Shown here: positions 38,746 to 63,141 of the stretch, one piece after another
Layout of the letters: each line of letters begins with the position of its first letter
Position numbering within the stretch: position 1 is the stretch's first letter
IMG/VR virus record: IMGVR_UViG_3300032516_000003
Span: 65,341 to 129,340 of that record
Reading direction: 5' to 3' (one strand)
DNA from: a virus
DNA length: 64,000 nucleotides
Notes under the pieces: generated by a model
Database searches by the model: none
The model's input: the letters and a program-made list of their open reading frames with translations, nothing else
What the model was told of the DNA's origin: nothing
Translations under genes and position numbers: made by a program

Positions 38746-39104
38746 CAGTTCACCTTGCGGAGCACGATCTGACTCTTGGGAAAGATCAAGGTGCCGGCCG
38801 TGCCTTCGACTAGACATAGCGTGTAGCGGTCGATCCACTTGAGCGTGCCGGCGTACTCTTTCTCGCCATACATCACCACTACGACCGACCCAATCCAGTC
38901 GCGCACCTCGGTGTGCCAGTTGTCCTGGACGTTCAGCAGATCCTTCAGCTGCCGCACGTCCTTCTCCAGCCGGTCCACCTTGTCCTTCAGACTCTGTAGC
39001 TTCTTGGACTGATCATTCTGGGGCATGGGAGGTCTCCTGAGGGTGGGGGGAGTGGCAGCATCTACTGCCTCGAATTGAACGTCAAGACAGTAGATGCCAA
39101 CCAC
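38745..39104 (-). CDS. coiled-coil protein with possible Sm/Hfq-like C-terminal domain
   Basis: SVVVVMYGEKEYAGTLKWIDRYTLCLVEG...IFPKSQIVL resembles the Sm1/Sm2 pattern. Confidence 0.35.
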   Translation of the reverse strand: MVGIYCLDVQFEAVDAATPPTLRRPPMPQNDQSKKLQSLKDKVDRLEKDVRQLKDLLNVQDNWHTEVRDWIGSVVVVMYGEKEYAGTLKWIDRYTLCLVEGTAGTLIFPKSQIVLRKVN

Positions 39105-42114: not shown

Positions 42115-42551
42115 TCGACCAGCCTCCCGAGCTTCGGCCGGGCGACGACTAGACCAGCCGCCTTGGCCCGGTGCTCCTGTTCGTTCCGCTCACACGAGGC
42201 GATGCTCTGCACCAGCTTGTCGAAGTCGCCGTCGTTCTGGCCGGCCCAGTAGTACATGGTCGGCTTGATGCGTAGCATGATCGCGCAGTTCGACATGCCG
42301 AGCGACATGACGCTGTTGTTGACCCCGATCCCCTCGGGGGTGGGCACCATGATGGTCCGAATGCACCGGCACTCGTACACGGTGACGTAGCCGTCGTCGT
42401 CCGGGAGCAGCCGCAGTTCCTTGCCGATTCGTGGGTACTCGACGATCTTGCACTTGTCCTGTGGCACCTTGCCCACATAGAGCATCTGTGGCGTGCCATC
42501 GGAGAGCACGAAGAGCTGGGCGTTCACTGACGTGTTTTCTTGATCGTTCAC
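42111..42551 (-). CDS. hypothetical protein, GTG start overlapping the helicase stop (GTGA) with AGGAGG
   Basis: AGGAGGACAACAAGTGA. 146 aa. No motifs recognised. Confidence 0.45.
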
Positions 42552-43993
42552 TTGTTGTCCTCCTGGTATGACCGGATGATGGTGAACTCCAGCGGCCCGC
42601 CTTGGTCCTTCGGCCACTGAGCCAGGCGCCGTTTGAGCGTGGTGCACATCTTGTGGAACTTGGGGATGAAGATGTGATCAATGATGACCACGATCGGCTG
42701 CTTCTTGTCCTTCCGGAAGCGCAGGATGCGCCCCATCCCCTGTTGCAGGGTGTTGGCCCCGCCGTCGTCGATGTCGGCTCGACCGAAGGGCGTGAGGAAG
42801 AACAGCGTGTCCAGACTGGCCTCATCCAGCGCCTCGCGAACGAGCTGGAGGGTGCCAAAGCTGATCTGCTTGTTCCTCAACGTCTCGATACGGGCGGCTG
42901 GTCGCTCCTTGCCCGTGCACAGGCCAGAGTCACCAAACATCCCGTGTAGTAGTCGTAGCTGCTCGACACTGTGGCTGAGGGCCAGGATCTTCCTCCCGGC
43001 CGCCAGTGGCTTGCGGAGCTTCTCGGCGATGAAGTCGTTCCCCTCAGGCAGCCGCCCTAGATACGTGCGCAGCTTGGGGATGCTCAGCTTGCCGCCCTTG
43101 TCTGTGACTTCATGAAGCACCGCACGGTCCTTCATGTTGATCTGCACCGGACACATCTGGAAGAAGATGGCCGGCTTGAGCTCCTGCATCAGGTCACGGT
43201 AGTAGATCTGCCCGATGTGGTACTGGTAGATCGTCTCCAGCCCATCTTCCCTGGTGGTCGTCGCCGTCAGTCCATGGCGCTCACCGAAGAACATCGGGGC
43301 GGTCTTCACGAAGAGTGGGGCGCTGAGGTGATGGGCCTCGTCGAAGTACACACCAGCGAAGTAGCGGTCGAATCCCAGCGGCAACTCGTCAGCGCGTAGT
43401 GCCAGCGAATTGATCATGCCGACGACGATGCCACGCCCCTGCCAGTCCCATTCTGCCGGTGGGCCCTGAGCCACTCCGACTCCACCCGGGACGTCGAGGA
43501 ATTCAGCGATGCGCTCCTGCCACTGATCGATAAGCGTCGTATTGTTCACCACTACGAGGGCCGGCATCTTGCGACAGGCAATGTGATGCAACGCGATGTT
43601 AGTCTTGCCCCGACCACATGCCAGATTCAGTAGCCCGCCACGGGACGCCCTCATGGCCGCGAAAGCATCACGCTGCAGGTGCTTGTCCGGCTCCTGCTTA
43701 TCCAGCACTACCCGGCTGCGGAACTCTACCCGGGGATACTGTTCAGGCCCGACGTCGATGATCGGGAACGGCAGGTTGTTGTACTGTCGCGCGGGGACGT
43801 ACTCGCGGGGGACGATCAGGTGGGTGTCGTTCTCAGACCACAGCTGGATGTACTTGATCCCGTCTGCGTCCATGACGGGAAACTCCAACCCGCGCTTGAT
43901 CGACCTGGTGTTGATGAGGGACTTGGGGAGCCAGAGCTGGCGGCCGTAGTAGCCTTTGTCCGACTCCCTGCGGACGAACCGCAGATCAGCCAT
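42548..43993 (-). CDS. SF2 DEAH-box DNA helicase
   Basis: LACGRGKT (motif I), FDEAHH (motif II), LTATT (motif III), QQGMGRILR (motif VI). The start has AGGAGG. Confidence 0.7.
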   Translation of the reverse strand: MADLRFVRRESDKGYYGRQLWLPKSLINTRSIKRGLEFPVMDADGIKYIQLWSENDTHLIVPREYVPARQYNNLPFPIIDVGPEQYPRVEFRSRVVLDKQEPDKHLQRDAFAAMRASRGGLLNLACGRGKTNIALHHIACRKMPALVVVNNTTLIDQWQERIAEFLDVPGGVGVAQGPPAEWDWQGRGIVVGMINSLALRADELPLGFDRYFAGVYFDEAHHLSAPLFVKTAPMFFGERHGLTATTTREDGLETIYQYHIGQIYYRDLMQELKPAIFFQMCPVQINMKDRAVLHEVTDKGGKLSIPKLRTYLGRLPEGNDFIAEKLRKPLAAGRKILALSHSVEQLRLLHGMFGDSGLCTGKERPAARIETLRNKQISFGTLQLVREALDEASLDTLFFLTPFGRADIDDGGANTLQQGMGRILRFRKDKKQPIVVIIDHIFIPKFHKMCTTLKRRLAQWPKDQGGPLEFTIIRSYQEDNK

Positions 43994-49219: not shown

Positions 49220-52200
49220 GTGGCTACCTCCTCGATGTTCGGCGGCTCCCAGAGCGCGATGCGCTTCTCCCACACCCGTGGGAGAATCAGCGGCAGTCAG
49301 GACTACGGGCTTCAGTACCCCAGCCCCTTCTTCGACATCGCCCACACGTACCTGCCGGCCACCGTCAAGCAGATGTTCCGGTGGTGCCGGTACTACTTCC
49401 TCGTCAACCCACTGATCAACGCCATCGTAGCCAAGATGTCCGAGTACCCGGTCACGGACATCATCTTCGACACGGAGAAGCCGGAGCTCAAGCAACAGTG
49501 GAAGGACTTCCTGCTGGAGCACCTGCGCTATCGAGCGTTCCAGATCGAGACGGGCCTCGACTACTACACCTACGGCAACACCCTGATCAGCATCTTCTAC
49601 CCCTTCATCAAGCTGCTGGTCTGCCCATCTTGTGGCAAGAAGACGCCGGCCCGCGAGGCGGAGTACCGCTTTCAGAACTTCCAGTTCATCATCAGCTGCA
49701 GCTGTGGTCACCACGGCCCGGCTGATACGGTGGACCACTACATCCGGGCGCCCAAGGGCATCCGGCTGCTGCGCTGGAATCCTGAGGACGTGGACATCCG
49801 CTACAACGACATCACCGGCGAGTACGAGTACTACTACACGGTCCCCACGCCACTGCGGAACGACATCATCATGGGCCGCAAGTCGACGGTGGAGACTGTG
49901 CCCCAGTTGTTCATCGACGCCTTGAGGCTAAAGAAGGCGGTCGTCTTCAGCCGTGACAACATCTACCACTTCAAGCGCCCCACCTTGGCCACCAAGGATC
50001 GCGGCTGGGGCACGCCGATGATCCTGCCGGTGCTGAAGGACACCTTCTACCTGCAGATCCTGCGGAAGGCCCAAGAATGCGTGGCACCCTCGACACTCAT
50101 CGAGTCTGTTAATGGCCTGGTGCCGGCTGATGACGTACGGGTGGGGGATCTAGTTAGAACGCACACCGGCCAGTGGCAGCCAGTGGAGAAGAAGTGGTAT
50201 CGAGATGCCCGCGAGGAAGAGATCGGACGCAAAATCATACTGGCTGGGCTGCGACCGTTTGGTGCTGTCTACTCTCCACAGCACCCGGTGTTTAGCCTTC
50301 GTCGCAACGAGGAGGGTCGGAGGATTGATACCAAGGATCGCCAGCGATCTTCTGTGATCTTGCGCAACCCACACCTCTACGAAGAAGTGCTGTGTCCCGC
50401 CGAGCAGCTACAGGTAGGAGACTACGTGCTCTACCCGCGTCGGCTTCCGACGGAAGATACGACGGTAGACGTAGCCCAGTATACTGGACTGACATCTACA
50501 GATGGCTGGGTCTACAGTGGTTGCGGGGAAGAGACGGCACAGGCGTTTGAGGCTTTGGAGCGCGGTGAACATGTCACGCACGACAATGCAGGGCAGGTGG
50601 CAAAGAGGATCCTGAAGGAGGGCCGTACCCCCAAGCGTATGGCAGCCTCTAGGCTCATGACTGAGGACTTCGCCTACGTCTTGGGCTGGTACGCAGGAGA
50701 CGGCAGTTGTGGCACTCGCCACGTCACATTTTCCTTGGGCAAGAAGGACGACCCAGCGCCATTGATGGCCGCCATCAAACGCGAGTTCGATTCGGTCGCT
50801 ACTGTCGAGATGGGGGAGTCAATCAATTCGGTGGTACTGTCTGATGTCATAGTGCGTCAGCTGATCAAAGGCATGATCCCCGGCGTAGCCAGGATCAAGC
50901 GCGTCCCGATTGAGGTACTGAACGGCACGGATAAGGTGAAGTTGGCCTATCTGCGCGGGCTGTGGGAGGCCGATGGCTGCAGGAGCGAGCATCAAGCGAC
51001 GCTGGCTACCAGCAGCCGCGAGCAGGCGTACGACGTCTATCGCCTGCTGCTACACTTCGGCTGCATTGCTAGCGTAAACCAGCGTCAAACGGCTGACTCG
51101 CAGCTGTCTGACGGCAGAGTCATCGTTGGTGGTACCCACTACCATACAGTGGCCTGCAGTGCGTCTCGTGATCGCCTCATGTCTCTGCTGGAGTGCGGAG
51201 GTGGGCCAGAGATCACTTCAGGCAAGAGCGGCTTCTTCTGGAAGGACTATTTCGCGTCTAGGGTAAGCGCGATCGAGGAGTCTGATGAGGAGCAATACAT
51301 CGACTTCAAGGTCAAGAACGACACCACCTTCTGTACGCCGGGCACAGCGACGAAAAATTCTATTGCGCTCGAACACATCGTGCCTCTGCGAATCCTCTTC
51401 CCACAAGCCGGGTCTGCCACCAGCGACCCGTACTGTCTATCGGTCAGTACATTGGTGGAGATCAATAAGGGATATCTCCCCGCAGGCGAGGTGAAGGTAG
51501 GCGATCTGGTTAAGACCTATCGTGGCAAATACCTTCCGGTGATTGCGATCAAGCGACGCCTGGTCAAGAAAGCGGAGAAGGTGTACGCGATCGGGGTGGT
51601 TGGTATGTCGGCCTTCCCCGTGGAGGCGTCTGAAGACCATCCTTTCTTTGCGGTCCAAGCTGAGGGCCGGCAGAAGAGGTATATCGCGGACTGGCAGCCA
51701 GATTGGGTAGCGACTAAAGACCTGCAGATCGGGGACTATGTTGCCTATCCGTTAGCACGAGAGATCAAGAATAGCCTCTCGGTTGACGTAGCGCAGTATC
51801 TGAGCTCCTACGTGGCTACTGACGAGTGGGTATATCGGCAGATCACGAAGGAGGGGGCAGAAGTCTACGAGTATGTAGAGCAGAGAGAGCAGCGACTATT
51901 TGCGGGAGGAGAGCTGCAGCAAACTGCTGCACAACACGGCTGGTCAGTGCCCACTCTGCAAACTACCGCCAGCCGCTATCGGCGTGGCCATCGAACCTCC
52001 AGGATCCCGCGACATCTCTCATGGTCCAAGCATCTTGCTACGATCGTAGGGTACTACCTGGCCGAGGGTTGCATTGGGAATCATATTACCTTCTCTTTGC
52101 ATAAGAAGGAGACTTGGATCTGCGACGAACTAGATGTCGCCTTCACGGCGCTGTTGGGTAAGAAAGGCACCCGGCGAACTCATGGCGACAATGGCTTGGT

Positions 52201-55075
52201 CTACGAGATCAGTGACAGTATCTTCGGAGAGTTCCTCCAGAACTACCTCGGTCACTTGGCCTGGAACAAGCGACTGCCACAAGAGGTCGTGCATCTTCCA
52301 GACGAGGTCATTCGCGAGCTTGTACGCTGTCTAATCAATGGTGACGGGGGCCGCGAGGAATGTTACCGAGACAACGGTACAGGCAGAGCCTGCCGTACTT
52401 CTTCGATGACGTTCACTTCAACTTCCAGAGACTTGGCCTTGAAGCTACGAGAGTTGTTGCTCTACTTGAGGGTAGTGGGCAAGGTACACCGGACACCTGT
52501 CCGTGAGAGACGCAAGCACGAGATCTTCCGCGTGAAAGTGTCTGGTGCGGAGGCCGTGGGGCTTTGGCAGCAGCTTGGTTGGGCCCTCCCCGAATTGGAG
52601 GTCAAGAAGGACACCACACGTTCCTTCATCCAGGGAGACTACGCCTTCTTCAGGGTGCAGAAGAAGGCGGAGCTCCATGATGTTGACTTCGTCTATGGCT
52701 TCCAGGTGGATGGAGACAAGAGCTTCTGTGTTCCGGCGTGCGCCACCCACAATACCACGGTCAACCTCCAAGACTGGCGTGACCACGTCGCCGGGGAGAT
52801 CAGACGGTGGCGTTGCGTATCACCCGACTCCATGGTTGAAACCATGGAGGGGCTGCGCCCGGCCGGAGAAGTGACAGTAGGAGATTGGCTGAAGAACCGG
52901 CTTGGAGGTTACGATCGCGTAGTCAAGCGTCACGAACGCGCGCTTGATCCAGGGGAGTTGGCGTATCGCCTGAGGGTGCGTGGGCAGCACGCTATTCAGA
53001 CCGTCTACTCTGAGGAACACCCCATCTTTGCCGCGCGCAAGCAGAACAACGGCAACGGCCATAAGCTGGGGGCACGCGAGTTCATTCCTGTAGCTGCACT
53101 CTCTGTCGGTGACTATGTAGGTTATCCTACCCGACGAGATGTCGTAAAGTATGTTGATCTGGACATCTCAGCTCACGTAGATCGGGCGGCTACAGATAAG
53201 TTCGTGTACACCGACTACCTGGAGTCCGATACGCCTCTGGCGTTCGAGTACCTTGAGGCACATCCGCAGGCGGGGGCCGCAGAGGCGGCCGCGGCCTCGG
53301 GGTGTCCAATTACCCCGGCCAAGACGGCGCATAACGCCGTTCGGGAAGGGCGTACGCTTAGACGCATCCCACGGTACCTCCCGTTTGACAAAGATCTGAT
53401 GTACGTGCTCGGCCTCTACGTGGCCGAAGGCAACGCTACACCCAAGCAGGTGATGTTCTCCTTGCACAAGGACGAGACCGAGATCTGTCAGCGTCTGGAC
53501 AGCTTCTTCCTGTCACGGTTTGGTGCGCACAGAACTGGCGGGCAGAAGACTGAGAATGGGATCCAGATCGCTTACAGCAGTGTCATCGCTGCTCAGGTAT
53601 TCCATGGGCTGGTTCCTGGTATAGCCATGAACAAGCGTCTGCCAGAAGCAGTTCGCCAGGCATCAGACGAACTAGCACTTGAGGCAGTGCGTGGCGTACT
53701 TGATGGTGATGGGTGCTACTATACCGACAAGACGGTGTTGGGAACCGCTAGTCGGCAGCTAGCAGAAGATGTGCGTCAACTGCTGCTATCTTGGGAAATC
53801 ATGCCCGGCATTTCTTTTGTTTCGGGCGGTCCCACCATCATCTGTGGTCGCGAGACCGTAGGCCACGGCTGCTACCTCGTTCAGGTCTCTGGTGACCAGC
53901 ACGCCAAGCTACAGGCACTCTTGCAAGGGGTGTCCTATACGGGTGCTGAGCACTGTAGATCAGGGCTATTCCGGGATGGCTTTGCCTGGTTCCGCATTGA
54001 GGCCATCGAAGAAGCTGAGCCGGAGAAGGTAGTGGCCTTCCAGATGGATGGTGACAGCACCTTCTGTACCTGGGGCGTGGCCACTCACAATAGCGACAAC
54101 AACTACATCCCCATCATGCCGCTGCCCATCGGCAACCAGACTATCGGCGGGGATGGCCGGGCCCTGCTTCTCAGCCAGGAGATCCGGGTATGGTCGGAGC
54201 ACATCGTGGCTGGGATGGGCGTACCAGTAGAGCTCATCTTCGGCGGCATGAGCTACTCGGGTAGCAACGTGTCGCTGCGCATGCTGGAGAACACCTACCT
54301 CGGCTACCTGCAGGACCAGCTCTCACTGCTGCGCTGGGTCATCCGCAACGTGTCCTCCTACTTGGGCTGGGCACCAGTGCGGGCCCGCTTCAAGCCGTTC
54401 AAGATGGCCGACGACCTGCAGCGGAAGGCCTACCTGTTCCAGCTGAGCCAGGCCGGCAAGCTCTCGGACGAGTCACTCCTGGCGGACGCCGACTTCGACT
54501 CGACCAAGGAAGACGCGATCATAGAGCGTGAGGCCTCCCGCCGTTCGGAAGCGCTACGCAAGCAGCAACTCATGCAGGCTGACATCCAGGGTGAAGCCCA
54601 GATGCAGAGCATGAAGTGGCAGACCAAGGCGCAGACCAAGGCGCTGAAGGAGCAGACGGCCATGCAGAACGAGATGGCCAAAGATCAACTGGCTACTCAA
54701 GCCGCCGCGCAGCAGGGACAGATCCCGCCGCCGCTGCCTCCTCGACCTGACCTGATTCAGCCGCCTCAGGAAGTGAAGTCACCACTCACCCTGCAGTCGG
54801 TGCAGCCCATCACCCCGGCCACCACCGGCGAATCCCTGGTCGGCCAGCAGAACATCGACCTGCTCTACCTCGGCCGCCAGCTCGCCGATCGCATCAACAA
54901 CATGGATGAGCTGCAGAAGCCGCAGGCCTTGGCGCAGCTGCGTGAAGACTCACCACAACTCTATGACGTCGTCTTGGGGCTAATGGCAAGCGGACCGAAG
55001 GGTCAAGTATCCGCCGGGCGGCCCCTGCCTGAGCAGAGACCGCCACGGCGGGGTCCAGAGAGCAGCTTGATCTAA
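49220..55075 (+). CDS. portal (T7 gp8-like head-tail connector) carrying three inteins. Mature extein about 658 aa
   Basis: Extein NNYIPIMPLPIG...GDGRALL resembles T7 gp8 YIPIRMVRLDGESYG, and the Q-rich C-terminal helix resembles gp8's C-terminus. The 1951-aa ORF minus inserts of 427, 440 and 426 aa gives about 658 aa. Confidence 0.65.
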   Translation: MATSSMFGGSQSAMRFSHTRGRISGSQDYGLQYPSPFFDIAHTYLPATVKQMFRWCRYYFLVNPLINAIVAKMSEYPVTDIIFDTEKPELKQQWKDFLLEHLRYRAFQIETGLDYYTYGNTLISIFYPFIKLLVCPSCGKKTPAREAEYRFQNFQFIISCSCGHHGPADTVDHYIRAPKGIRLLRWNPEDVDIRYNDITGEYEYYYTVPTPLRNDIIMGRKSTVETVPQLFIDALRLKKAVVFSRDNIYHFKRPTLATKDRGWGTPMILPVLKDTFYLQILRKAQECVAPSTLIESVNGLVPADDVRVGDLVRTHTGQWQPVEKKWYRDAREEEIGRKIILAGLRPFGAVYSPQHPVFSLRRNEEGRRIDTKDRQRSSVILRNPHLYEEVLCPAEQLQVGDYVLYPRRLPTEDTTVDVAQYTGLTSTDGWVYSGCGEETAQAFEALERGEHVTHDNAGQVAKRILKEGRTPKRMAASRLMTEDFAYVLGWYAGDGSCGTRHVTFSLGKKDDPAPLMAAIKREFDSVATVEMGESINSVVLSDVIVRQLIKGMIPGVARIKRVPIEVLNGTDKVKLAYLRGLWEADGCRSEHQATLATSSREQAYDVYRLLLHFGCIASVNQRQTADSQLSDGRVIVGGTHYHTVACSASRDRLMSLLECGGGPEITSGKSGFFWKDYFASRVSAIEESDEEQYIDFKVKNDTTFCTPGTATKNSIALEHIVPLRILFPQAGSATSDPYCLSVSTLVEINKGYLPAGEVKVGDLVKTYRGKYLPVIAIKRRLVKKAEKVYAIGVVGMSAFPVEASEDHPFFAVQAEGRQKRYIADWQPDWVATKDLQIGDYVAYPLAREIKNSLSVDVAQYLSSYVATDEWVYRQITKEGAEVYEYVEQREQRLFAGGELQQTAAQHGWSVPTLQTTASRYRRGHRTSRIPRHLSWSKHLATIVGYYLAEGCIGNHITFSLHKKETWICDELDVAFTALLGKKGTRRTHGDNGLVYEISDSIFGEFLQNYLGHLAWNKRLPQEVVHLPDEVIRELVRCLINGDGGREECYRDNGTGRACRTSSMTFTSTSRDLALKLRELLLYLRVVGKVHRTPVRERRKHEIFRVKVSGAEAVGLWQQLGWALPELEVKKDTTRSFIQGDYAFFRVQKKAELHDVDFVYGFQVDGDKSFCVPACATHNTTVNLQDWRDHVAGEIRRWRCVSPDSMVETMEGLRPAGEVTVGDWLKNRLGGYDRVVKRHERALDPGELAYRLRVRGQHAIQTVYSEEHPIFAARKQNNGNGHKLGAREFIPVAALSVGDYVGYPTRRDVVKYVDLDISAHVDRAATDKFVYTDYLESDTPLAFEYLEAHPQAGAAEAAAASGCPITPAKTAHNAVREGRTLRRIPRYLPFDKDLMYVLGLYVAEGNATPKQVMFSLHKDETEICQRLDSFFLSRFGAHRTGGQKTENGIQIAYSSVIAAQVFHGLVPGIAMNKRLPEAVRQASDELALEAVRGVLDGDGCYYTDKTVLGTASRQLAEDVRQLLLSWEIMPGISFVSGGPTIICGRETVGHGCYLVQVSGDQHAKLQALLQGVSYTGAEHCRSGLFRDGFAWFRIEAIEEAEPEKVVAFQMDGDSTFCTWGVATHNSDNNYIPIMPLPIGNQTIGGDGRALLLSQEIRVWSEHIVAGMGVPVELIFGGMSYSGSNVSLRMLENTYLGYLQDQLSLLRWVIRNVSSYLGWAPVRARFKPFKMADDLQRKAYLFQLSQAGKLSDESLLADADFDSTKEDAIIEREASRRSEALRKQQLMQADIQGEAQMQSMKWQTKAQTKALKEQTAMQNEMAKDQLATQAAAQQGQIPPPLPPRPDLIQPPQEVKSPLTLQSVQPITPATTGESLVGQQNIDLLYLGRQLADRINNMDELQKPQALAQLREDSPQLYDVVLGLMASGPKGQVSAGRPLPEQRPPRRGPESSLI
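50078..51358 (+). mobile_element. portal intein 1 (427 aa, LAGLIDADG type)
   Basis: ...RKAQE|CVAPSTLIES... with VLGWYAGDGSC and LRGLWEADGC. Ends TFCTPGTATKN with +1 Ser, so the penultimate residue is Lys rather than His. Confidence 0.75.
51434..52753 (+). mobile_element. portal intein 2 (440 aa, LAGLIDADG type)
   Basis: ...SDPY|CLSVSTLVEINKG... with IVGYYLAEGCIG and LVRCLINGDGG. Ends SFCVPACATHN with +1 Thr. Confidence 0.75.
52814..54091 (+). mobile_element. portal intein 3 (426 aa, LAGLIDADG type)
   Basis: ...IRRWR|CVSPDSMVETMEG... with VLGLYVAEGNAT and VRGVLDGDGCY. Ends TFCTWGVATHN with +1 Ser. Confidence 0.75.
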
Positions 55076-55965: not shown

Positions 55966-58900
55966 ATGGCACGCCTGTCCCCGGAAGAGGGCTTTCAAGT
56001 CCTCGGAGACCGGGTCAAGGAGACGCTGACGGGCCTGTTCCCGATCGTAGGCAAGAAGCACACCCTGAGCCTTGATCAGGTAGAGGTCAAGGACAACCTC
56101 GATCTGGACGACATCCGCAGCCAGAAGGAAGCGCGCCTCAGCGGGCGCTCCTGGGCTGTTCCCGTTGAGGGTCGGGTGGCACTGGTGGACAATGCCACTG
56201 GTCGCGCCGTCGACTCGCAGAAGATCCGGCTGCTCAGCCTGCCCAAACACACCCGCCGCTACACGCACATCGTCAACGGCCGCGAGAAGCAGATCGACAA
56301 CCAGTGGCGGTTGAAGTCCGGCGTGTACGCTCGCATCAAGGAGAACGGCGAGCTGCAGTCGGACTTCAATCTGCGCAAGGGTGGCCGCGGCTTCGACATC
56401 GAATTCGATCCCAAGACCCACCAATTCAAGCTGGCGTACGGCACCTCGAACATCCCGCTCTCGCCACTCATGCAAGAGCTTGGCGTCCCGCGCGACACCA
56501 TTGAGCAGCAGTGGGGCAAGGAGATCACCAGCGCCAATCATGCTGATCGCGACCAGGCGGTGGCCAAGTTCTACCGCGCCTCGGTGGGCAAGCCCCCAGA
56601 GAGTCTGGAGCAGGCACGGGCCCATCTGCGTGACTCCTTCCAGAAGATGGAGGTCCGGCCGGACACCACGAGGATCACCTTGGGCAAGGAGCACACCCAG
56701 GTCACTGGTCACACACTGATGGACGCGGCCACCAAGCTGCTCCACGTCAGCCAGGGCAAGGCCCAGCCGGATGCTCGTGATGCGCTCATGTTCAAGGAGC
56801 TCCACTCGGTCGAGGACTTCATGGCTGAGCGGCTGCGTAAGGGCTCCCGCGACATCTTCCGCCGCATCCAGAACACCCTCGACAAGAAGACCAGTGTCCG
56901 CGACATCGTCGGTCCTAACATCTTCCACGGACCGATCGAGACGATGTACCGCACCTCACTGGTGAACGAGCCCAAGCAGATCAATCCGCTGGAGATGATC
57001 TCCGGCCAGATGAAGACCACCATCACTGGCGAGGGTGGCATCCAGAATGTCTACGGCATCACTGACGACGCCAAGCTGGTAGATGCCTCTCATCTGGGCT
57101 TCCTTGATCCCATTCACACGCCCGAGGGTGAAGCGACCGGCGTCAACCTGCGCTTGCCGTTGGGGGTCAAGAAGGTCGGTCACGACGTCGTAGTCCGAAT
57201 GTTCAACGTCCGGACTGGCAAGATGGAGCAGATCAATCCTGAGAAGGCGATGAATGCCACGGTAGCCCTGCCAGATCAGGTGAAGTGGGTTGGCGGCAAG
57301 CCCCACCCACTCGGCAAGGACGTACAAGTCAGTGGCCCCGGGAATGAGATCAAGACGGCCCCATTCAAGTCGGTCGACTACGTCATGCGAGACCCATCGC
57401 AGATGTTCTCGGTGTCGTCCAACCTGATCCCTTTCTTGCCCGCTGACCACCCCAACCGTAGCACCATGGCTGGCCGTCACATGGAGCAGGCCATATCACT
57501 GGTCCATCGCGAGCCGCCGCTGGTCCGGTCTGCCATCGTCGGCGGCAAGAAGATCATAGATGAGTGGGTCGGCAAGTTCGCTGGCCACAGCTCTCATGTG
57601 GATGGCACGGTGACGAAGGTGCAGAACGACGCCATCCACGTCAAAGACAAGGATGGCAAGAAGCACGAGATCCAGATCTACGATCACTTCCCGCTCAACG
57701 ATGACAAGTCTTTCCTCCACTCCACCCCGCTGGTGAAGGTGGGCGACCGAGTCAAGAAGGGCCAGCCGATCGCGGACAGCAACTTCACGCGTGGTGGCAC
57801 CCTGGCCTTGGGCACGAACCTGAAGGTCGGCTACTTGCCCTACAAGGGCTACAACTTCGAGGACGGTGTGGTCATCAGTGAGTCTGCGGCCAAGCAGCTC
57901 ACCAGCGAGCACCTGCACCAGAAGTCACTGGCTCTGGACAAAGAGCATGTGCTGGACAAGGCCAAGTACCAGGCCTACATGCCTGGTCGCCTGAATCGCG
58001 ATCAGATGGCCAAGATGGATGACGACGGGGTGGTCAAGCCGGGGCAGCTCGTGATGCCTGGCGACCCGCTAGTGCTGGCTCTGAAGAAGCACTCCGACCG
58101 GGGAGAGGATCGAGATCTGGCGCGGTTGCACCGCTCTCTGGTAAAGCCCTACCGAGATGACAGCATCATCTGGGAGCAGGATCATCCAGGTGTAGTGCAG
58201 GAGGTGGTGAAGCACGGCAAGCAGATCCTCGTGCACGTCAAGACCCAGGAGCAGGCAGAGATCGGGGACAAGGTGGCCGGCCGCCATGGCAACAAGGGGA
58301 TCATCACGTGTCATGATCAATGGACGGAGGTGCTGACTGGTCGCGGTTGGCTCAAATTCGAAGAGCTGCGCAAGGACGATCTCGTCTGCACTCTGAATCC
58401 AGAGACAGACGAGATCGAATATCACCGACCCACAGCCACTATCAGTCAGCAGCATCAGGGAAAGATGTTCCTGTTCGATGGGCCTCGTGTGAATCTATGT
58501 ACCACCCCTGAACATCGTCACTGGATACGCCCAATTCGTGGCGGGGCGTATCACTTCGAGACCTCGAAGGAGGTACACGCCCATGGCACGGTACACAAAC
58601 GTGGTGGATCGATTTGGGGTGGTACAGCAAAGAGACGAATCACGATCCCCGGTAGGCCAGCATTCAGGAAGGGTTGGCACGAGTACGATAGTCCGCGGTC
58701 TTACAACGCTGACGATTTCTTAGAATTCTTCGGGTACTGGATTACTGAAGGCTGCTTGTCTCGTAGTAGTGTGGTGATCGGGCAATCTCTTAACGCCAAT
58801 CCAGACACTTATGCGGCGATCAGGGCGTGTCTAGAGCGACTGGGGTACCGTGTGTCTGCGGGGTCGACCAGTTTGGCGATTGGGGATCCGCGGCTGGCCT

Positions 58901-61900
58901 ACTGGTTGCGCCAGTTCGGTCTATCTAAGAACAAGTCCATTCCGCGAACGTTCATGAGCTTGACCAAGCACCAATTGGCGATCTTGATGGATGCTATGAT
59001 GGCTGGGGATGGATGCATCTATTACGATGCCCGCCACAACCACACCAGACACGAGTTCTGCACCTCTTCCAAGCGGCTTGCAGATGACGTCCAAGAACTA
59101 GCACTGAAGCTGGGTCACAGCGCCAATATTAAGGTGAACATTCGTAAGAAGACGGGTGCTCACGAATACGTGGTGCGTTTTAGCTTCAAGGATGAAGTCT
59201 TCGTCAACAACGATAAGCGGGTGAATTGCTCTCGTTGGATCGATTACGCGGGACCAGTCTATTGTGTGGACGTGCCCAACCACATCGTCTACGTGCGCCG
59301 TAACGGTGTCCCAGTCTGGTCTGGCAATTGCATCATCCCAGATCATGAGATGCCCAAGACAGCAGATGGTCCGCTCCATATTCTCCTGAACCCGGCCGGC
59401 GTTCCTGGTCGTACCAACCTGGGGCAGGTCTTGGAGACCGCAGTCTCCAAGGTGGCGCTGAAGACGGGCAAGCCCTATCTGGTGCAGAACTTCGCCCCCA
59501 ACGCCGACTTCCACACCCAAGTATCGCAAGAGCTCAAGAAGCACGGCCTCACTGACAAGGAAGAAGTCTTCGACGGCGTCTCCGGCAAGAAGCTGGGAGA
59601 GGCACTGGTTGGCGTCCAGCACATCCTCAAGCTGCAGCACCAGGTGGAGAAGAAGCTCTCGGCTCGTGCTGGTGGTCCTGGTTATGCCTATGATCGCAAC
59701 TTGATCCCCCGTGGTGGTGGCGCTCACGGTGCCCAGTCACTAGGCGCTCTCGGCCTGTATGCCATGTTGGCCCATGGGGCCAAGGCCAACCTGCGCGAGA
59801 TGCAGACGGTGAAGAGCGACTCCGAGCAGAGCGATGAGTTCTGGGCCGCACTGCAGGCCGGTGAGCCACTTCCTGCCCCACGCCCGACCTTCGCCTACAA
59901 GAAGTTCCTGGGCTACATGACCGGCCTGGGATTGAACGTGAAGAAGGAAGGCAACAACCTCCAGCTCATCCCCTTCACCGACAAGCAGGTGGAGCAGATG
60001 AGCAACGGTGCCTTGCCTGATGCCGCGAAGATGGTCCACGCCAAGAACCTCAAGCCAGAGGTGGGTGGCAGCTTCGATCCCCACCTCACTGGCGGAGAGA
60101 GCGGCACCAAGTGGACCCACATCCGGCTGCCAGAATCCTTCCCCAACCCAGTCTTCGAGCATCCGATCCAAGCCCTGCTGGGCATCACGCACAAGGACTT
60201 CGAGGCGGTGATCGCCGGCCAGAAAGGACTGCATCCCACCACGGGGAAGCTCGTCGAGTCACATCTGGGACTCACTGGCGGTCATGCCTTCGACCAGGCC
60301 TTGGGCAGGATCGACGTGCAGAAGGAGCTGCGCACCGCCACCACCCAGCTAGCCAATCCCGGGCTCAAGGGCAACCGCCTCGACCAGATCAACAAGAAGA
60401 TCAAGTTCTTGAAGGCACTGGACAGCGCCGGCCTGTCTCCACGTGAAGCCTACATGCAGCAGAACATCCCGGTCATGCCGCCGGTGTTCCGCCCGGTCTC
60501 CCAGCTACCCAACGGCGACCTGAACGTCGATGACGTCAATCACATGTACAAGGGCATCGCCCTGTCGGCCAGCCGTCTCAAGGTGATGTCACCGCTGCTG
60601 CCGCCGGAAGAGAAGAACGAGGTCCGGGCCGAGGTCTACGACGGCCTGCGCTCACTGGCGGGTCTGGGCGGCCACATGAACCGGAAGTTCCGCGGCATCC
60701 TCGACATCATCTCTGGCCACCGTCCCGACAAAGAGACCGGTGAGAAGGTCGGCGCCCCCAAGTACGGCTACTTCCAAGATCGACTGGTGAAGCGGAAGCA
60801 GGACCTGAGCATGCGCTCCACCATCATCCCCGAGCCGTCTCTTGGTCTGGACGAGGTGGGCATTCCGCGGAAGGCCGCAGTCGAGCTCTACAAGCCCTTC
60901 ATCGTCAGGGAGTTGCGGACTCTGGCCGGCATGACCCCGCTGGAGGCCCAGCAGCACATCAAGGACAATGCCCCCATCGTTGATCGGGCATTGGAGCGGG
61001 TGATCACTGACCGTCCCATCCTGCTCAAGCGCGATCCAGTGCTTCACAAGTATGGGGTGCAGGCCTTCAAGCCGCGCATCGTTGGCGGCAAGGCGGTGCA
61101 GATCCACCCGCTGGTGACCTCGGGCTACAACGCCGACTTCGACGGCGATGCCATGAGCGCCTTCGTCCCAGTCGGCAATGAGGCCGTGGCTGAAGCGCAC
61201 AAGATGTTCCCCTCCAACAACCTGTTCAGCCCGGCCACCGGCTCGATCGCCTATGCCCCGACCCATGAGGCTCTACTCGGACTCTATGGGGTCACCAGGA
61301 CCGGGGGCAAGACCAACAAGACCTTCAAGAATGTAGAGGAGGTAGAGGCCGCTCTACGCAAGAGTGAGTTGCAGCTGAACGACCAGATCAAAGTGGGTGG
61401 CCTGGCTAGTACTGCTGGTCGTTTCCTCGTTGGCGGGGCGCTTCCCGAGCCGATGCGGCGACCGTTCCTCACCAAAACTGAGCCGCTGGACAAGAAGGCC
61501 CAGCAAGAGCTGTTGACTCACTTGGCCACGAACCACCCCCACGATTACGGCCCGGTGGTGGACAAACTGAAGAATCTCGGCAACCGCTGGTCTACCGACA
61601 CGGCCTTCTCGATCGGCTTGGAGGACATCAAGCCGGAGAAGGAAGCGCGAGACAAGATCTTGGCGGCCGCGCACAAGGCGGCCGCGGGGACCACCGGCAC
61701 CCAGCACGAGCGGGATCGAAAAGCCATCGACATCTACTCGCAGGCCACGGAGCAGATGCACAAGGAGCTAGGGAAGCTGGACGAGCAGCACAGCTCGCTG
61801 ATCACCATGAGTCGGGCCGGAATCAAGCCGACGATGGACACGCTCCGTCAGATCAAGATGGCGCCGATGCTGTTCATGAACGCCAAACGGGAGGTCATCC

Positions 61901-63141
61901 CCTCACCCGTGACCAAGTCCTTCGCTGAGGGCCTGGATCTGGCCGGCTACTGGACTTCAATGAGTGGGGCTCGCAAGGGCATCATCCAGAAGGTCCAGGC
62001 CGTGCAGGAGCCAGGCTACGTCACCAAGATGATCATGAACTCGGTCATGGATAACCTGATTATGGACCATGACTGTGGTACCGACAAGGGCATTGCTCTA
62101 CACATCGACGAGAAGGATATCCTCGATCGGCACCTGGCGATCGACCACAAGGCTGGCAAGCACGTCTTCAAGGCTGGCACCCTGGTCACGCCAGAAGTAC
62201 GGACTGCCCTGCGGAACAACAAGGTGGGTCGAGTAGTAGTTCGCTCCCCGCTGCGCTGCCAGCATGGGCCGGGGGTCTGTCAGAAGTGCTTCGGTCTGGC
62301 CGAGAACGGCAGACACCCGGAGATCGGGACGAACATCGGCGTGATGGCAGGCCAGGCCATTGGCGAACGCGCCACGCAGCTGGCGATGAAAAGCTTCCAT
62401 ACTGGTGGCACGGCAGCCACGTTCACCGGGCTCGTGGATGAGTTCAGCCGGGTGAAGAACCTGTTGACGTTCCCGTTGACCCTGCCGAACTCGGCCACGC
62501 TCAGCTCCGTCTCGGGGCGGGTAGAGAAGGTCGAGAAGGACCCGGCCGGTGGCCACAACGTCTTCATCGGTGGCACGCGCCACTACGTGCCCCAGAGTCG
62601 TGGCATCCCGCAGTTCGATGGAAAGTCACTCAGGTCGGGGGTGGAGATCAAGAAAGGCTCGCCGATCTCCGCCGGCCCGGTCAATCCCCACGAGATGCTG
62701 CCACTCACTGGCATTGAAGCAGTACAGGGTCACCTGTCTGATGAGCTGCACAAGCTCTATGCCTCTGAAGGTATCCGGCGGCGCAACCATGAGGTCGTGG
62801 TGAAGGCCATGACCAGCGTCACCAAGATTGAAGATCCAGGCAGCCATCACGGCTTCATCCGGGGGGACTTTGCACCGGCCGCGCTGGTTGCTAATCTGAA
62901 TCGGACAGCACCCAAGACGGCCAAGCCCATCATTCACAAGCCGGTGCTGCGCGGAGTGAACATCCTGCCACTGGACCTGCACGAGGACTGGATGGCGCGA
63001 TTGAATCACGAGCGGCAGACCCAGACAGTACTGGAAGCCGCGCAGAAGGGCTGGATCAGCAAGATCCACGGCACCCACCCCATCCCAGCGATTGTGCATG
63101 GGGCCGAAGTGGGTAGAGGAGACAAACCATGGCTCTACTAG
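55966..63141 (+). CDS. single-polypeptide bacterial-type RNA polymerase: reduced beta fused to beta', with an intein in beta
   Basis: Beta motifs: GFLDPIHTPEGEATG, HPNRSTMAGRHMEQAISLV, GYNFEDGVVISE, GDKVAGRHGNKG|intein|IIPDHEMP...LNPAGVPGRTNLGQ, and ..LREMQTVKSDS. Beta' follows without a stop: IPVMPPVFRP, LKRDPVLHKYGVQAF..GKAVQIHPLVTSGYNADFDGDAMS, GERATQLAMKSFHTGG. No zinc-binding CxxC is present at the beta' N-terminus. Confidence 0.85.
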   Translation: MARLSPEEGFQVLGDRVKETLTGLFPIVGKKHTLSLDQVEVKDNLDLDDIRSQKEARLSGRSWAVPVEGRVALVDNATGRAVDSQKIRLLSLPKHTRRYTHIVNGREKQIDNQWRLKSGVYARIKENGELQSDFNLRKGGRGFDIEFDPKTHQFKLAYGTSNIPLSPLMQELGVPRDTIEQQWGKEITSANHADRDQAVAKFYRASVGKPPESLEQARAHLRDSFQKMEVRPDTTRITLGKEHTQVTGHTLMDAATKLLHVSQGKAQPDARDALMFKELHSVEDFMAERLRKGSRDIFRRIQNTLDKKTSVRDIVGPNIFHGPIETMYRTSLVNEPKQINPLEMISGQMKTTITGEGGIQNVYGITDDAKLVDASHLGFLDPIHTPEGEATGVNLRLPLGVKKVGHDVVVRMFNVRTGKMEQINPEKAMNATVALPDQVKWVGGKPHPLGKDVQVSGPGNEIKTAPFKSVDYVMRDPSQMFSVSSNLIPFLPADHPNRSTMAGRHMEQAISLVHREPPLVRSAIVGGKKIIDEWVGKFAGHSSHVDGTVTKVQNDAIHVKDKDGKKHEIQIYDHFPLNDDKSFLHSTPLVKVGDRVKKGQPIADSNFTRGGTLALGTNLKVGYLPYKGYNFEDGVVISESAAKQLTSEHLHQKSLALDKEHVLDKAKYQAYMPGRLNRDQMAKMDDDGVVKPGQLVMPGDPLVLALKKHSDRGEDRDLARLHRSLVKPYRDDSIIWEQDHPGVVQEVVKHGKQILVHVKTQEQAEIGDKVAGRHGNKGIITCHDQWTEVLTGRGWLKFEELRKDDLVCTLNPETDEIEYHRPTATISQQHQGKMFLFDGPRVNLCTTPEHRHWIRPIRGGAYHFETSKEVHAHGTVHKRGGSIWGGTAKRRITIPGRPAFRKGWHEYDSPRSYNADDFLEFFGYWITEGCLSRSSVVIGQSLNANPDTYAAIRACLERLGYRVSAGSTSLAIGDPRLAYWLRQFGLSKNKSIPRTFMSLTKHQLAILMDAMMAGDGCIYYDARHNHTRHEFCTSSKRLADDVQELALKLGHSANIKVNIRKKTGAHEYVVRFSFKDEVFVNNDKRVNCSRWIDYAGPVYCVDVPNHIVYVRRNGVPVWSGNCIIPDHEMPKTADGPLHILLNPAGVPGRTNLGQVLETAVSKVALKTGKPYLVQNFAPNADFHTQVSQELKKHGLTDKEEVFDGVSGKKLGEALVGVQHILKLQHQVEKKLSARAGGPGYAYDRNLIPRGGGAHGAQSLGALGLYAMLAHGAKANLREMQTVKSDSEQSDEFWAALQAGEPLPAPRPTFAYKKFLGYMTGLGLNVKKEGNNLQLIPFTDKQVEQMSNGALPDAAKMVHAKNLKPEVGGSFDPHLTGGESGTKWTHIRLPESFPNPVFEHPIQALLGITHKDFEAVIAGQKGLHPTTGKLVESHLGLTGGHAFDQALGRIDVQKELRTATTQLANPGLKGNRLDQINKKIKFLKALDSAGLSPREAYMQQNIPVMPPVFRPVSQLPNGDLNVDDVNHMYKGIALSASRLKVMSPLLPPEEKNEVRAEVYDGLRSLAGLGGHMNRKFRGILDIISGHRPDKETGEKVGAPKYGYFQDRLVKRKQDLSMRSTIIPEPSLGLDEVGIPRKAAVELYKPFIVRELRTLAGMTPLEAQQHIKDNAPIVDRALERVITDRPILLKRDPVLHKYGVQAFKPRIVGGKAVQIHPLVTSGYNADFDGDAMSAFVPVGNEAVAEAHKMFPSNNLFSPATGSIAYAPTHEALLGLYGVTRTGGKTNKTFKNVEEVEAALRKSELQLNDQIKVGGLASTAGRFLVGGALPEPMRRPFLTKTEPLDKKAQQELLTHLATNHPHDYGPVVDKLKNLGNRWSTDTAFSIGLEDIKPEKEARDKILAAAHKAAAGTTGTQHERDRKAIDIYSQATEQMHKELGKLDEQHSSLITMSRAGIKPTMDTLRQIKMAPMLFMNAKREVIPSPVTKSFAEGLDLAGYWTSMSGARKGIIQKVQAVQEPGYVTKMIMNSVMDNLIMDHDCGTDKGIALHIDEKDILDRHLAIDHKAGKHVFKAGTLVTPEVRTALRNNKVGRVVVRSPLRCQHGPGVCQKCFGLAENGRHPEIGTNIGVMAGQAIGERATQLAMKSFHTGGTAATFTGLVDEFSRVKNLLTFPLTLPNSATLSSVSGRVEKVEKDPAGGHNVFIGGTRHYVPQSRGIPQFDGKSLRSGVEIKKGSPISAGPVNPHEMLPLTGIEAVQGHLSDELHKLYASEGIRRRNHEVVVKAMTSVTKIEDPGSHHGFIRGDFAPAALVANLNRTAPKTAKPIIHKPVLRGVNILPLDLHEDWMARLNHERQTQTVLEAAQKGWISKIHGTHPIPAIVHGAEVGRGDKPWLY
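58309..59328 (+). mobile_element. intein (340 aa, LAGLIDADG type) in RNAP beta between GNKGIIT and IIPDHEMP
   Basis: Starts at Cys782 (CHDQWTEV). Contains FFGYWITEGCLS and LMDAMMAGDGCI. Ends ...NGVPVWSGN with +1 Cys, so the penultimate residue is Gly rather than His. Confidence 0.7.

Follow-up and report, generated by a model that had tools for sequence, protein, structure and literature searches.

The 64,000-nucleotide stretch of viral DNA analyzed here (the window; positions 65,341 to 129,340 of IMG/VR virus record IMGVR_UViG_3300032516_000003) contains a long reading frame in which three intein-like inserts, together making up 66.2% of the frame, fall within 45 residues of an apparent phage portal protein. 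A portal requires 12 correctly spliced subunits per virion, and the locus raises the questions of whether the interrupted protein is indeed a portal, whether each insert is an intein, and whether the three inserts arose from one another or arrived separately. Taken together, the data make it very probable that the frame encodes the portal of a ~193-kb tailed phage, interrupted by three independent mobile class-1 inteins that were assembled stepwise.

The portal reading frame and its inserts

The frame and its parts are listed below by position in the window, with slashes marking the predicted splice junctions.

49220..55075, + strand: portal precursor ORF, 1951 aa, GTG start, stop codon counted in
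49220..50077, + strand: N-extein, portal residues 1-286, ending ...LRKAQE; GC3 0.91
50078..51358, + strand: putative intein 1 (I1; site s1, KN lineage), 427 aa, aa 287-713; junction QE/C...TATKN/S; GC3 0.67
50273-50293, + strand: I1 block B, SPQH
50678-50707 and 50951-50980, + strand: I1 LAGLIDADG motifs, YAGDGS and WEADGC
51359..51433, + strand: extein spacer 1, 25 aa, SIALEHIVPLRILFPQAGSATSDPY
51434..52753, + strand: putative intein 2 (I2; site s2, window-type lineage), 440 aa, aa 739-1178; junction PY/C...CATHN/T; GC3 0.66
51629-51649, + strand: I2 block B, SEDH
52043-52072 and 52322-52351, + strand: I2 LAGLIDADG motifs, YLAEGC and INGDGG
52754..52813, + strand: extein spacer 2, 20 aa, TTVNLQDWRDHVAGEIRRWR
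52814..54091, + strand: putative intein 3 (I3; site s3), 426 aa, aa 1199-1624; junction WR/C...VATHN/S; GC3 0.62
53009-53029, + strand: I3 block B, SEEH
53405-53434 and 53687-53716, + strand: I3 LAGLIDADG motifs, YVAEGN and LDGDGC
54092..55075, + strand: C-extein, portal residues 332-658, starting SDNNYIPIMPLPIG; GC3 0.82

The insert lengths, junctions, spacer lengths and the 66% share of the frame reported in the first-pass annotation were all reproduced exactly, and the ending of I1 in KN instead of HN, also remarked upon there, is present. Removal of the inteins in silico yields a portal of 658 aa. Calculated masses are 219 kDa (precursor), 74.9 kDa (spliced portal), 47.4 kDa (I1), 50.1 kDa (I2) and 46.8 kDa (I3). 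Few stretches of the portal family are as conserved as spacer 1, and the N-extein contains four conserved Cys residues (CPSC...CSCG) that likely form a Zn ribbon.

Identification of the host protein as a portal, as originally proposed, is backed by extein alignment, gene order, and a structure-model search. Specifically, no gap at s1, s2 or s3 interrupts the alignment of the spliced extein to gp204 of Salmonella phage Arash and to the corresponding protein of Vibrio phage D69, at 33-34% identity (34% to the Arash portal by tblastn); Arash and Vibrio D69-type phages are the nearest cultured relatives of this portal, and Arash Gp204 is an annotated portal that has been detected by mass spectrometry in virions (PMC10585845). 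Gene order (portal, then a small ORF, then the giant RNA polymerase) is kept among the relatives compared. Profile and nucleotide searches contributed little: a weak match to the portal family phrog_2833 was obtained in PHROGs (E = 4e-5, covering 73 residues only), the portal has no match in Pfam, and GenBank phages yielded no near-identical DNA match to the ORF. An AF2 model of P0001, an intein-free homolog 93% identical to the window portal, reached a pLDDT of 71, and when this model was compared with the PDB using Foldseek, the top 50 matches were portal proteins only (HK97, lambda, T4, G20c, SPP1 and others), each with a probability of 1.00 and with TM-scores, normalized to the target, of 0.27-0.52. 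No second portal-like locus was found within the window, which represents about a third of the ~193-kb genome.

Intein and endonuclease features of the inserts

The initial reading of the inserts as LAGLIDADG-type inteins at QE/S, PY/T and WR/S agrees with the residues found in each. I1, I2 and I3 all carry Cys1, an SxxH block B at residues 66-69, two LAGLIDADG motifs that each retain an acidic residue, and a terminal Asn, and they are followed by a +1 Ser, Thr and Ser, respectively. Pfam LAGLIDADG_3 scores over cut-off in all three (4e-12, 1e-5 and 5e-8), Hint_2 covers the first ~48 residues of each at scores under the curated cut-off, Intein_splicing matches I2, likewise under cut-off, and all NCBIfam matches lie within the intein parts of intein-containing models. 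When the three inteins were combined into a profile, PDB matches were to PI-PkoII (2cw7), VMA inteins and the gp41-1 intein; a single-sequence phmmer search with I1 gave no match there, and an AF2 model of I1 built from a three-sequence alignment (pLDDT 50) was too poor for a fold search. Within each lineage, no variation is seen at Cys1, the His of block B, the LAGLIDADG residues or the terminal Asn while the remaining intein positions vary, a pattern that points to selection for function. By these sequence features all three inserts are class-1 inteins, and they are predicted both to splice and to home.

The inteins carry foreign codon usage, with GC3 values of 0.62-0.67 as compared to 0.80-0.91 in the exteins. 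Nor is the portal the only gene of the window to be interrupted, given that at least six inteins reside in essential genes within the 64 kb, three in the portal and others in PolA, DnaB and the RNA polymerase.

Site occupancy and the origin of the triple allele

Empty target sites in related phages, a comparison suggested by the first-pass annotation, were found. An intein-free portal 93% identical to the window extein is located on a collinear contig, and contig L003, collinear with and ~80% identical to the window at the nucleotide level, is devoid of all three portal inteins as well as the RNA polymerase intein. The segments absent from L003 are exactly the three inserts, and their excision restores a contiguous portal homolog; so precise a match between the inserts and what a collinear relative lacks is not attributable to chance. 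The residue following the insertion point also varies with occupancy: occupied s1 and s3 sites always present a +1 nucleophile (Ser in the alleles counted, Cys in some others), and at empty sites the +1 residue is mostly Ala, Phe or Tyr.

The portal has abundant homologs: 1576 were counted in the protein database, and IMG/VR contributed 414 loci from a scan that returns the best contiguous matches and so favors intein-free loci. Occupancy was mapped in 225 homologs, a biased sample consisting of best matches only, from which occupancy frequencies and co-occurrence statistics are thus not derivable. Across the family, inteins are found at six or more sites spread over ~270 residues, and those at s1, like those at s2, are of two distinct types. 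In a monomer model with a low-confidence clip, the succession of secondary-structure elements would place these sites in the stem, clip and tunnel-loop part of the portal, which appears to be an intein hot spot in this phage clade. Among the 225 homologs, single inteins were observed at every site along with many doubles, nine triples (four being s1+s2+s3) and two quadruples. The triple arrangement of the window is not unique: s1, s2 and s3 are also filled in three other portals, including P0122, the extein of which is 78% identical to that of the window over its first 470 residues. Additionally, P0123, P0125 and P0126 have exteins and s3 inteins that are 99-100% identical, and they differ in the content of the other sites. 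At s1 they contain, respectively, an HN-type intein, an HN-type intein 88% identical to that of P0123, and a KN-type intein; at s2, a window-type intein, an intein of the other type, and no intein. Such differences between near-identical exteins would fit stepwise assembly, and together with the empty and occupied alleles of close relatives and the foreign GC3, these lineage mosaics suggest that the inteins are mobilized by homing.

Comparison of the inteins themselves bears upon the initial claim that the three are paralogous and "clearly derived from one another," a claim that is not borne out. Pairwise identity among I1, I2 and I3 is 30-32%, so that, common motifs notwithstanding, the claim overstates the sequence. 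Portal inteins from different sites are in general 25-35% identical, whereas I1, I2 and I3 are 63-74% identical to same-site inteins in other phages, and clustering goes by site: I1 is 65-74% identical to site-1 inteins of other phages, I2 is 70% identical to the inteins of P0086, P0122 and P0123, and I3 is 63-68% identical to other site-3 inteins. Inteins of unrelated host proteins are no more distant than those of other portal sites, and some are closer, at up to 36-39% identity; the exteins of the closest such hosts have no Pfam domain and no homolog in the 64-kb window. The shared motifs to which the first-pass annotation drew attention do exist, but the (S/T)FC..AT(H/K)N ending does not serve as a sign of shared derivation, being a trait of a wider intein family that is also seen in non-portal inteins (GVATHN/T). 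In a simple neighbor-joining tree (numpy bootstrap), the site-specific groups were recovered with values of 100 for s1, 99 for s3 together with s3b, and 100 for each of the two s2 types; the deep nodes are weak because the distances are near saturation. These comparisons indicate that three separate site-specific intein lineages have piled up in this gene, as opposed to one having been triplicated.

Alternative explanations differ in the part of this account that they challenge. Decay of one or more inserts, such as the KN-ending I1, could have abolished splicing and left either a dead portal gene or a phage reliant upon a second copy, and in favor of this stand the Lys of I1 in place of the usual penultimate His, the HINT scores under Pfam cut-off, and the fact that the window covers only a third of the genome. 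It is nonetheless very improbable that the inserts are decayed. The frame is open across 1951 codons, I1, I2 and I3 have all kept their catalytic residues (Cys1, the His of block B, the terminal Asn and a nucleophile at +1), the trio is found again in diverged phages (P0122), and the window itself holds no other portal locus. Moreover, all 16 alleles of the s1 KN lineage have Lys at the penultimate position, which points to selection and not decay, and a penultimate His is also missing from some natural inteins, such as the DnaE inteins of cyanobacteria, in which Ser or Ala takes its place (PMC5874633); the KN ending of I1 is best read as no defect. A chimeric metagenome assembly, in which single-intein variants were merged via the shared spacers of 60-75 nt, is conceivable insofar as neither spacer reaches the length of a typical read or k-mer and natural single-intein variants exist at each site. 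This explanation is scarcely credible in light of an identical 1951-aa protein (P0121) found in two records (contigs of 193,340 and 193,704 bp, from JGI and ENA) and a P0122 cluster in which five triple-intein members, near full length and each on its own contig, come from JGI and ENA, which together argue that the triple allele is no assembly artifact; further triples and quadruples come from additional sources, NCBI among them.

The remaining alternatives accept three functional inteins and differ as to their origin or purpose. Duplication within the gene, whereby one invading intein was copied to two nearby sites in this lineage to give recent paralogs, would account for the common architecture (426-440 aa, Cys1, SxxHP and the shared ending), and it draws on the grouping of s1 with s3/s3b in 50 of 100 bootstraps as well as on s3 and s3b, sites two residues apart whose inteins share an ancestor (99/100) and thereby demonstrate that short site shifts have happened in the portal-intein family. 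Such an origin is very unlikely when set against the identities described above, both within and outside of portals, the failure to find any DNA-level repeat among I1, I2 and I3, the single occupation of every site in many relatives, and the tree, in which all portal inteins were monophyletic in 3 of 100 bootstraps and the two s2 types formed one group in 10 of 100, setting the I2 lineage apart from the second s2 lineage. A different possibility is that the inteins are kept for a benefit to the phage, either by cutting the essential portal gene of intein-free relatives that co-infect, a form of interference competition, or through conditional splicing that times portal maturation. The presence of six or more inteins in essential genes of the window and the conservation of endonuclease motifs are compatible with such use, and in one jumbo phage, a homing endonuclease encoded within an intron has been demonstrated to confer an advantage over a relative during co-infection (PMC11620839). 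Adaptive retention is nevertheless unlikely, since the sites are patchily occupied, with turnover between near-identical exteins, and the 93%-identical portal has zero inteins; selfish gain and loss fits these observations better than fixation by benefit. It is a doubtful speculation that the portal, RNA polymerase, DNA polymerase and helicase genes of a widespread ~190-kb environmental phage clade form an arena of endonuclease warfare, in which the three endonucleases of stacked inteins would jointly disable and convert the portal gene of co-infecting intein-free relatives, acting as competitive weapons rather than pure parasites, with the 20-25-residue spacing linking the three inteins into a single cassette inherited together.

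Proposed mechanism, significance and known systems

Under the preferred reading, that of independent inteins assembled stepwise, the 219-kDa precursor would be translated first. Each intein would then undergo an N-S acyl shift at Cys1, after which the N-extein would be transferred onto the +1 residue (Ser, Thr and Ser, respectively); the terminal Asn would cyclize and an O-N shift would complete each excision, the expected products being a 658-aa, 75-kDa portal and three free endonucleases of ~47-50 kDa. During mixed infection, each endonuclease could cut the intein-free copy of its own site in the portal gene of a related phage, and recombinational repair of the cut would copy the intein in. 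The triple allele was probably built step by step, through separate invasions of alleles that already bore inteins at other sites and with no duplication inside the gene.

Portal-gene inteins and multi-intein proteins have both been described before, and no new mechanism is implied by finding the two phenomena together. The value of the locus instead lies in the system to which it belongs: a large natural population with states ranging from zero to four inteins and near-identical exteins that differ in content. A six-site portal with all of these occupancy states offers a ready-made data set on whether neighboring inteins help or hinder homing, effects that, to our knowledge, have so far been tested in haloarchaeal MCM only. 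Diverged inteins that presumably splice side by side with exteins of 20-25 residues would, if confirmed, be of interest to protein engineers. On a practical level, portals of this kind will emerge from gene callers and annotation pipelines as 2000-aa proteins labeled "hypothetical" or "homing endonuclease."

Several known systems bear comparison. Like class-1 inteins of the PI-PkoII and PI-SceI type, each portal intein appears to comprise an N-terminal splicing half, a LAGLIDADG domain and a C-terminal splicing half, and in the three-intein profile the endonuclease domain matches PI-PkoII (2cw7) and VMA inteins, the C-terminal splicing block the gp41-1 intein. Unlike in those inteins, a Ser replaces the block B Thr and, in I1, a Lys replaces the penultimate His, and the similarity is remote. 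The inteins of actinobacteriophage portals likewise lie inside phage portal genes (Kelley et al., 2016; PMC5050341), and a 2025 survey describes portal inteins as polyphyletic, with five groups (bioRxiv 10.1101/2025.01.02.630785). The window portal differs in belonging to another family, one with no Pfam match, and in its number of inteins: the passages compared from both reports describe a single intein per portal, and a text search of the two papers retrieved no relevant mention of several inteins in one protein.

The closest parallel is provided by the inteins of haloarchaeal MCM (CDC21), which occupy sites a-d (Turgeman-Grott et al., 2023; PMC10643990). There the host is a cellular replicative helicase and has four sites, whereas the window host is a phage virion protein of a family with at least six sites, two intein types at each of s1 and s2, and spacers of just 25 and 20 residues, and the portal case is known from sequence. 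In other respects the two systems are alike. Each involves an essential, ring-forming, DNA-translocating host with closely spaced sites in conserved regions, a LAGLIDADG intein particular to each site, patchy occupancy that includes singles, doubles and more, and intein trees that conflict with extein trees. Empty alleles often lack the +1 nucleophile in both, from which it follows, by comparison with MCM, that invasion would require co-conversion. Finally, the stepwise model put forward for MCM, in which singly occupied alleles are invaded anew (PMC10643990), fits the mosaics observed among the portals.

The interrupted portal gene

Scripted location of the junctions reproduced every figure given in the first-pass annotation for the sizes, sites and spacing of three inserts (I1, I2 and I3) in one large ORF, and for their share of it (↓ marks a junction):

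49220-55075, + strand: portal precursor ORF, 1951 aa, GTG start
50078-51358, + strand: I1, aa 287-713, 427 aa, KAQE↓CVAPSTL...TATKN↓S
51434-52753, + strand: I2, aa 739-1178, 440 aa, SDPY↓CLSVSTL...CATHN↓T
52814-54091, + strand: I3, aa 1199-1624, 426 aa, RRWR↓CVSPDSM...VATHN↓S

Extein spacers of 25 and 20 residues separate I1 from I2 and I2 from I3, and the inserts make up 66.2% of the ORF. The precursor has a calculated mass of 219 kDa and the spliced product one of 74.9 kDa; I1, I2 and I3 come to 47.4, 50.1 and 46.8 kDa. Their identification as LAGLIDADG-type inteins is borne out by conserved catalytic residues and motifs common to all three: Cys1, the block B motif SxxHP (residues 66-70), a pair of LAGLIDADG motifs in which the acidic residue is kept, and a block F/G ending in (S/T)FC....AT(H/K)N followed by a +1 Ser or Thr. 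Pfam LAGLIDADG_3 scores above cut-off in 3/3 inserts and Hint_2 below cut-off over their N-terminal ~48 residues; in the PDB, a profile built from the three finds the endonuclease of the PI-PkoII intein, two VMA inteins and, from the gp41-1 intein, the C-terminal block; and all NCBIfam matches fall within the intein portion of intein-containing models (Tes, RNR, DnaB, GyrA, VMA, RFC, RpoA''). The predicted structure model of I1 is too poor (pLDDT 50) to bear on the HINT fold. Codon usage of the inteins is foreign relative to the exteins, with GC3 values of 0.62-0.67 and 0.80-0.91, respectively, and the intein of the RNA polymerase gene displays the same contrast.

The host protein had been named a portal, and several findings agree. 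The 658-aa spliced sequence has no match in Pfam and only a weak portal match in PHROGs; tblastn yields one contiguous match to Salmonella phage Arash gp204, annotated 'portal protein' (34% identity), and one to Vibrio phages D69, D181 and D148 (33%), with a weaker match to the portal of Bacillus phage G. Alignment of the spliced portal with Arash gp204 and D69 contains zero gaps at all three junctions, and the window, Arash and D69 share one gene order, with the portal followed by a small ORF and then by a very large RNA polymerase gene. When P0001, a 93%-identical, intein-free homologue, was modelled with AlphaFold2 from 72 intein-free homologues (mean pLDDT 71), the best 50 Foldseek matches in the PDB were all portal proteins (probability 1.00 each), including those of HK97, lambda, T4, G20c, SPP1 and phage 812. 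Arash Gp204 has been found in purified virions by mass spectrometry (PMC10585845). Residues ~135-165 of the N-extein (49220-50077) contain four Cys (CPSC...CSCGHHG) that are invariant in the 72 homologues and present in Arash and D69; this region, a small beta-rich insertion in the predicted model, is likely a zinc ribbon within the portal wing, and one homologue is named 'Zn-ribbon protein' by JGI.

The canonical portal layout runs wing, stem helix, clip, stem helix, tunnel loop, long wing helix, crown. The P0001 model, whose residue numbers are 5 lower than those of the window extein, shows in succession a long helix (264-294), a loop of low confidence, a helix (311-327), a loop (328-351), a helix (352-368), a short loop and a long helix (384-417). 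Read against the canonical layout, this order would place s1, the site of I1, midway along the first stem helix, the sites of I2 and I3 (s2 and s3) and the adjacent s3b in the clip, and a further family site, s5, at the tunnel loop. Inteins tend to sit in conserved functional sites, with which the stretch LRKAQE-SIALEHIVPLR.LFPQ, among the most conserved of the portal family, agrees.

Empty sites and intein lineages

A protein search with the spliced extein returned 1576 homologues, of which the best is P0001 (653 aa); ~100 of the best 120 are intein-free. L003, the 53.8-kb contig encoding P0001, runs collinear to window 38288-61152, with 75-83% nucleotide identity. The large segments that it lacks number four: the portal's three inteins and ~1 kb of the RNA polymerase gene, itself a fourth intein. 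The comparison with related phages proposed in the first pass finds all three target sites empty at the codon level: KAQE↓SIAL, SDPY↓TTVN and RRWR↓ADNN. At site 3, the +1 residue is Ala in this empty allele versus Ser in the occupied one. Across homologues, +1 at occupied s1 and s3 is always a nucleophile (Ser; Cys in some alleles), whereas at empty sites it is mostly Ala at s1 and mostly Ala, Phe or Tyr at s3; invasion would therefore have to co-convert the +1 codon. Empty portal alleles resemble in this respect those of MCM-d, a haloarchaeal MCM helicase intein for which the same need has been described (PMC10643990).

At least six inteins lie in the window, every one in an essential gene; those outside the portal are as follows:

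55966-63141, + strand: RNA polymerase beta + beta' fusion gene, 2391 aa, Rpb2 and Rpb1 Pfam domains, NADFDGD motif; next large gene after the portal
58309-59328, + strand: its LAGLIDADG intein, 340 aa, inside GNKGIIT↓C...SGN↓CIIPDHEMP; GN ending, +1 Cys; absent from L003
31266-32348, - strand: family A DNA polymerase intein (gene 30711-33749), 361 aa, in motif B, HRQDAK↓C...THN↓TIGFALNYG
36940-38169, - strand: DnaB-like helicase intein (gene 35977-38838), 410 aa, in the P-loop, GRPKSMK↓C...VHN↓T

On L004, a second related contig, the RNA polymerase gene exceeds 3591 aa and has several intein and LAGLIDADG matches. A 752-aa ResIII helicase on the same contig (3017-5275, -) matches Intein_splicing and HNH_3, its homologues in the window (42548-43993, -) and L003 being 481 aa; it is another variable intein site, with an HNH rather than a LAGLIDADG endonuclease.

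The first-pass description of I1, I2 and I3 as paralogous and clearly derived from one another is not supported. Pairwise identity is 30-32%, no DNA repeat shared among the three was found, and each site is singly occupied in other phages' portals. Portal inteins cluster according to site rather than genome: I1 shares 65-74% identity with other site-1 inteins, I2 70% with the site-2 inteins of three other portals (P0086, P0122 and P0123) and I3 63-68% with other site-3 inteins, against 25-35% across sites. Site 1 hosts two types, ending in Lys-Asn (KN, 16 alleles) or His-Asn (HN, 15 alleles), that are ~35-40% identical yet form a joint clade (100% bootstrap); the inteins of s3 and s3b share an ancestor (99/100), while the two site-2 lineages group together in only 10/100 bootstraps. 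In a joint NJ analysis with non-portal inteins, the clade of all portal inteins receives 3/100 support. A whole-library search with I3 recovered inteins 28-34% identical over their full length in unrelated giant proteins that lack Pfam domains and have no window homologue, and the I2 lineage, at a maximum of 36% to non-portal inteins and 28-34% to other portal sites, is at least as close to the former. The C-terminal motif of the three also occurs in non-portal inteins. Given these site-wise lineages, low cross-site identity and poor support for monophyly, the three are best read as separate lineages within one broad family, and any common origin long predates the window phage.

The closest non-portal relatives of the portal inteins reside in very large proteins (1.5-3.1 kaa; P0237, P0245, P0250, P0252, P0270, P0275, P0282, P0295, P0302, P0307 and P0312) without a Pfam domain, at a conserved site, ...NP.PN.MP.WLPG...(H/R/K)GDPY↓C...ATHN↓TK.P.GE.RLPGPGYE. 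Their DPY↓T junction residues are those of portal site 2 (SDPY↓T), and they were placed with the second site-2 lineage in an NJ tree drawn without support values for this grouping, which hints at a jump between genes via a similar target. Separately, I3 matches 5 to 8 stretches in each of P0232, P0233, P0234 and P0247 (2729-4920 aa), with eight in the 4920-aa P0234; these may be many-intein proteins.

Occupancy and turnover across the portal family

Querying with the entire precursor brought up, besides many multi-intein portals, the protein of the window itself (P0121; 193,340-bp contig), and insertions were mapped onto extein coordinates in all 225 retrieved homologues. Six sites emerged: s4 after Y116, s1 at E286↓S, s2 at Y311↓T, s3 at R331↓S with s3b two residues beyond it, and s5 near 385-387. 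Occupancy is combinatorial, with states that include 86 singles, many doubles, nine triples and two quadruples (P0129, 2351 aa; P0132, 2405 aa). The s1+s2+s3 triple occurs four times (P0121, P0122, P0123, P0125), the other triples being s1+s3+s5, s4+s1+s2, s2+s3+s5, s1+s2+s5 and s1+s3b+s5.

The four s1+s2+s3 alleles are mosaics of lineages: P0122 has the same three as the window, P0123 an HN type at s1, and P0125 other lineages at s1 and s2. Independent turnover is supported most strongly by P0123, P0125 and P0126, whose exteins and s3 inteins are 99-100% identical. Their s1 inteins are HN, HN (88% identical to each other) and KN, respectively, and their s2 is occupied by the window type, occupied by the other type, and empty. 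The turnover here is recent and independent, at sites lying only 25 and 20 codons from a neighbour that stayed the same.

Assembly chimerism was considered and is unlikely, because the identical 1951-aa sequence recurs in a second record (P0352, 193,704-bp contig) and the P0122 cluster has five near-full-length triple-intein members, from JGI and ENA.

The KN ending of I1 noticed in the first pass is confirmed at its junction. Divergence elsewhere in the intein has reached 64-86% identity, yet the penultimate Lys is invariant in 16/16 alleles of the KN lineage, which speaks for maintenance rather than decay; natural inteins lacking His at this position have been documented (PMC5874633).

One intein-free portal homologue (P0094, 54% identical) is encoded in a genome record of 13.6 Mb, that of Pendulispora rubella (Myxococcota), and P0086, which has a site-2 intein, comes from a 'Candidatus Eisenbacteria' MAG. 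These two records may hint at hosts, or may represent prophage or contaminating phage contigs.

Proposed mechanism and known systems

The best-supported account of the portal ORF is that of three independent class-1 inteins, which would splice after translation to release a 75-kDa portal and whose LAGLIDADG domains would cleave empty alleles during co-infection and drive homing into them. Assembly and packaging in a tailed phage depend on the portal, and no second portal locus was found within the 64-kb window; therefore all three inteins would have to splice well enough to yield the 12 subunits that each virion requires.

Mycobacteriophages and other actinobacteriophages are already known to have portal inteins, and these are polyphyletic (PMC5050341; bioRxiv 10.1101/2025.01.02.630785). 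Several inteins in one protein, with four sites in MCM, are likewise known (PMC10643990). A search of open-access text yielded no account of a portal that carries three or four inteins, nor any of this portal family as a hot spot with six sites. For haloarchaeal MCM, it has been proposed that multi-intein alleles arise stepwise by invasion of occupied alleles, co-homing being inefficient (PMC10643990), and the turnover at the portal sites fits such a model. The portal family thus implies no new mechanism, and provides a useful natural system in which to analyze interactions between neighbouring inteins.
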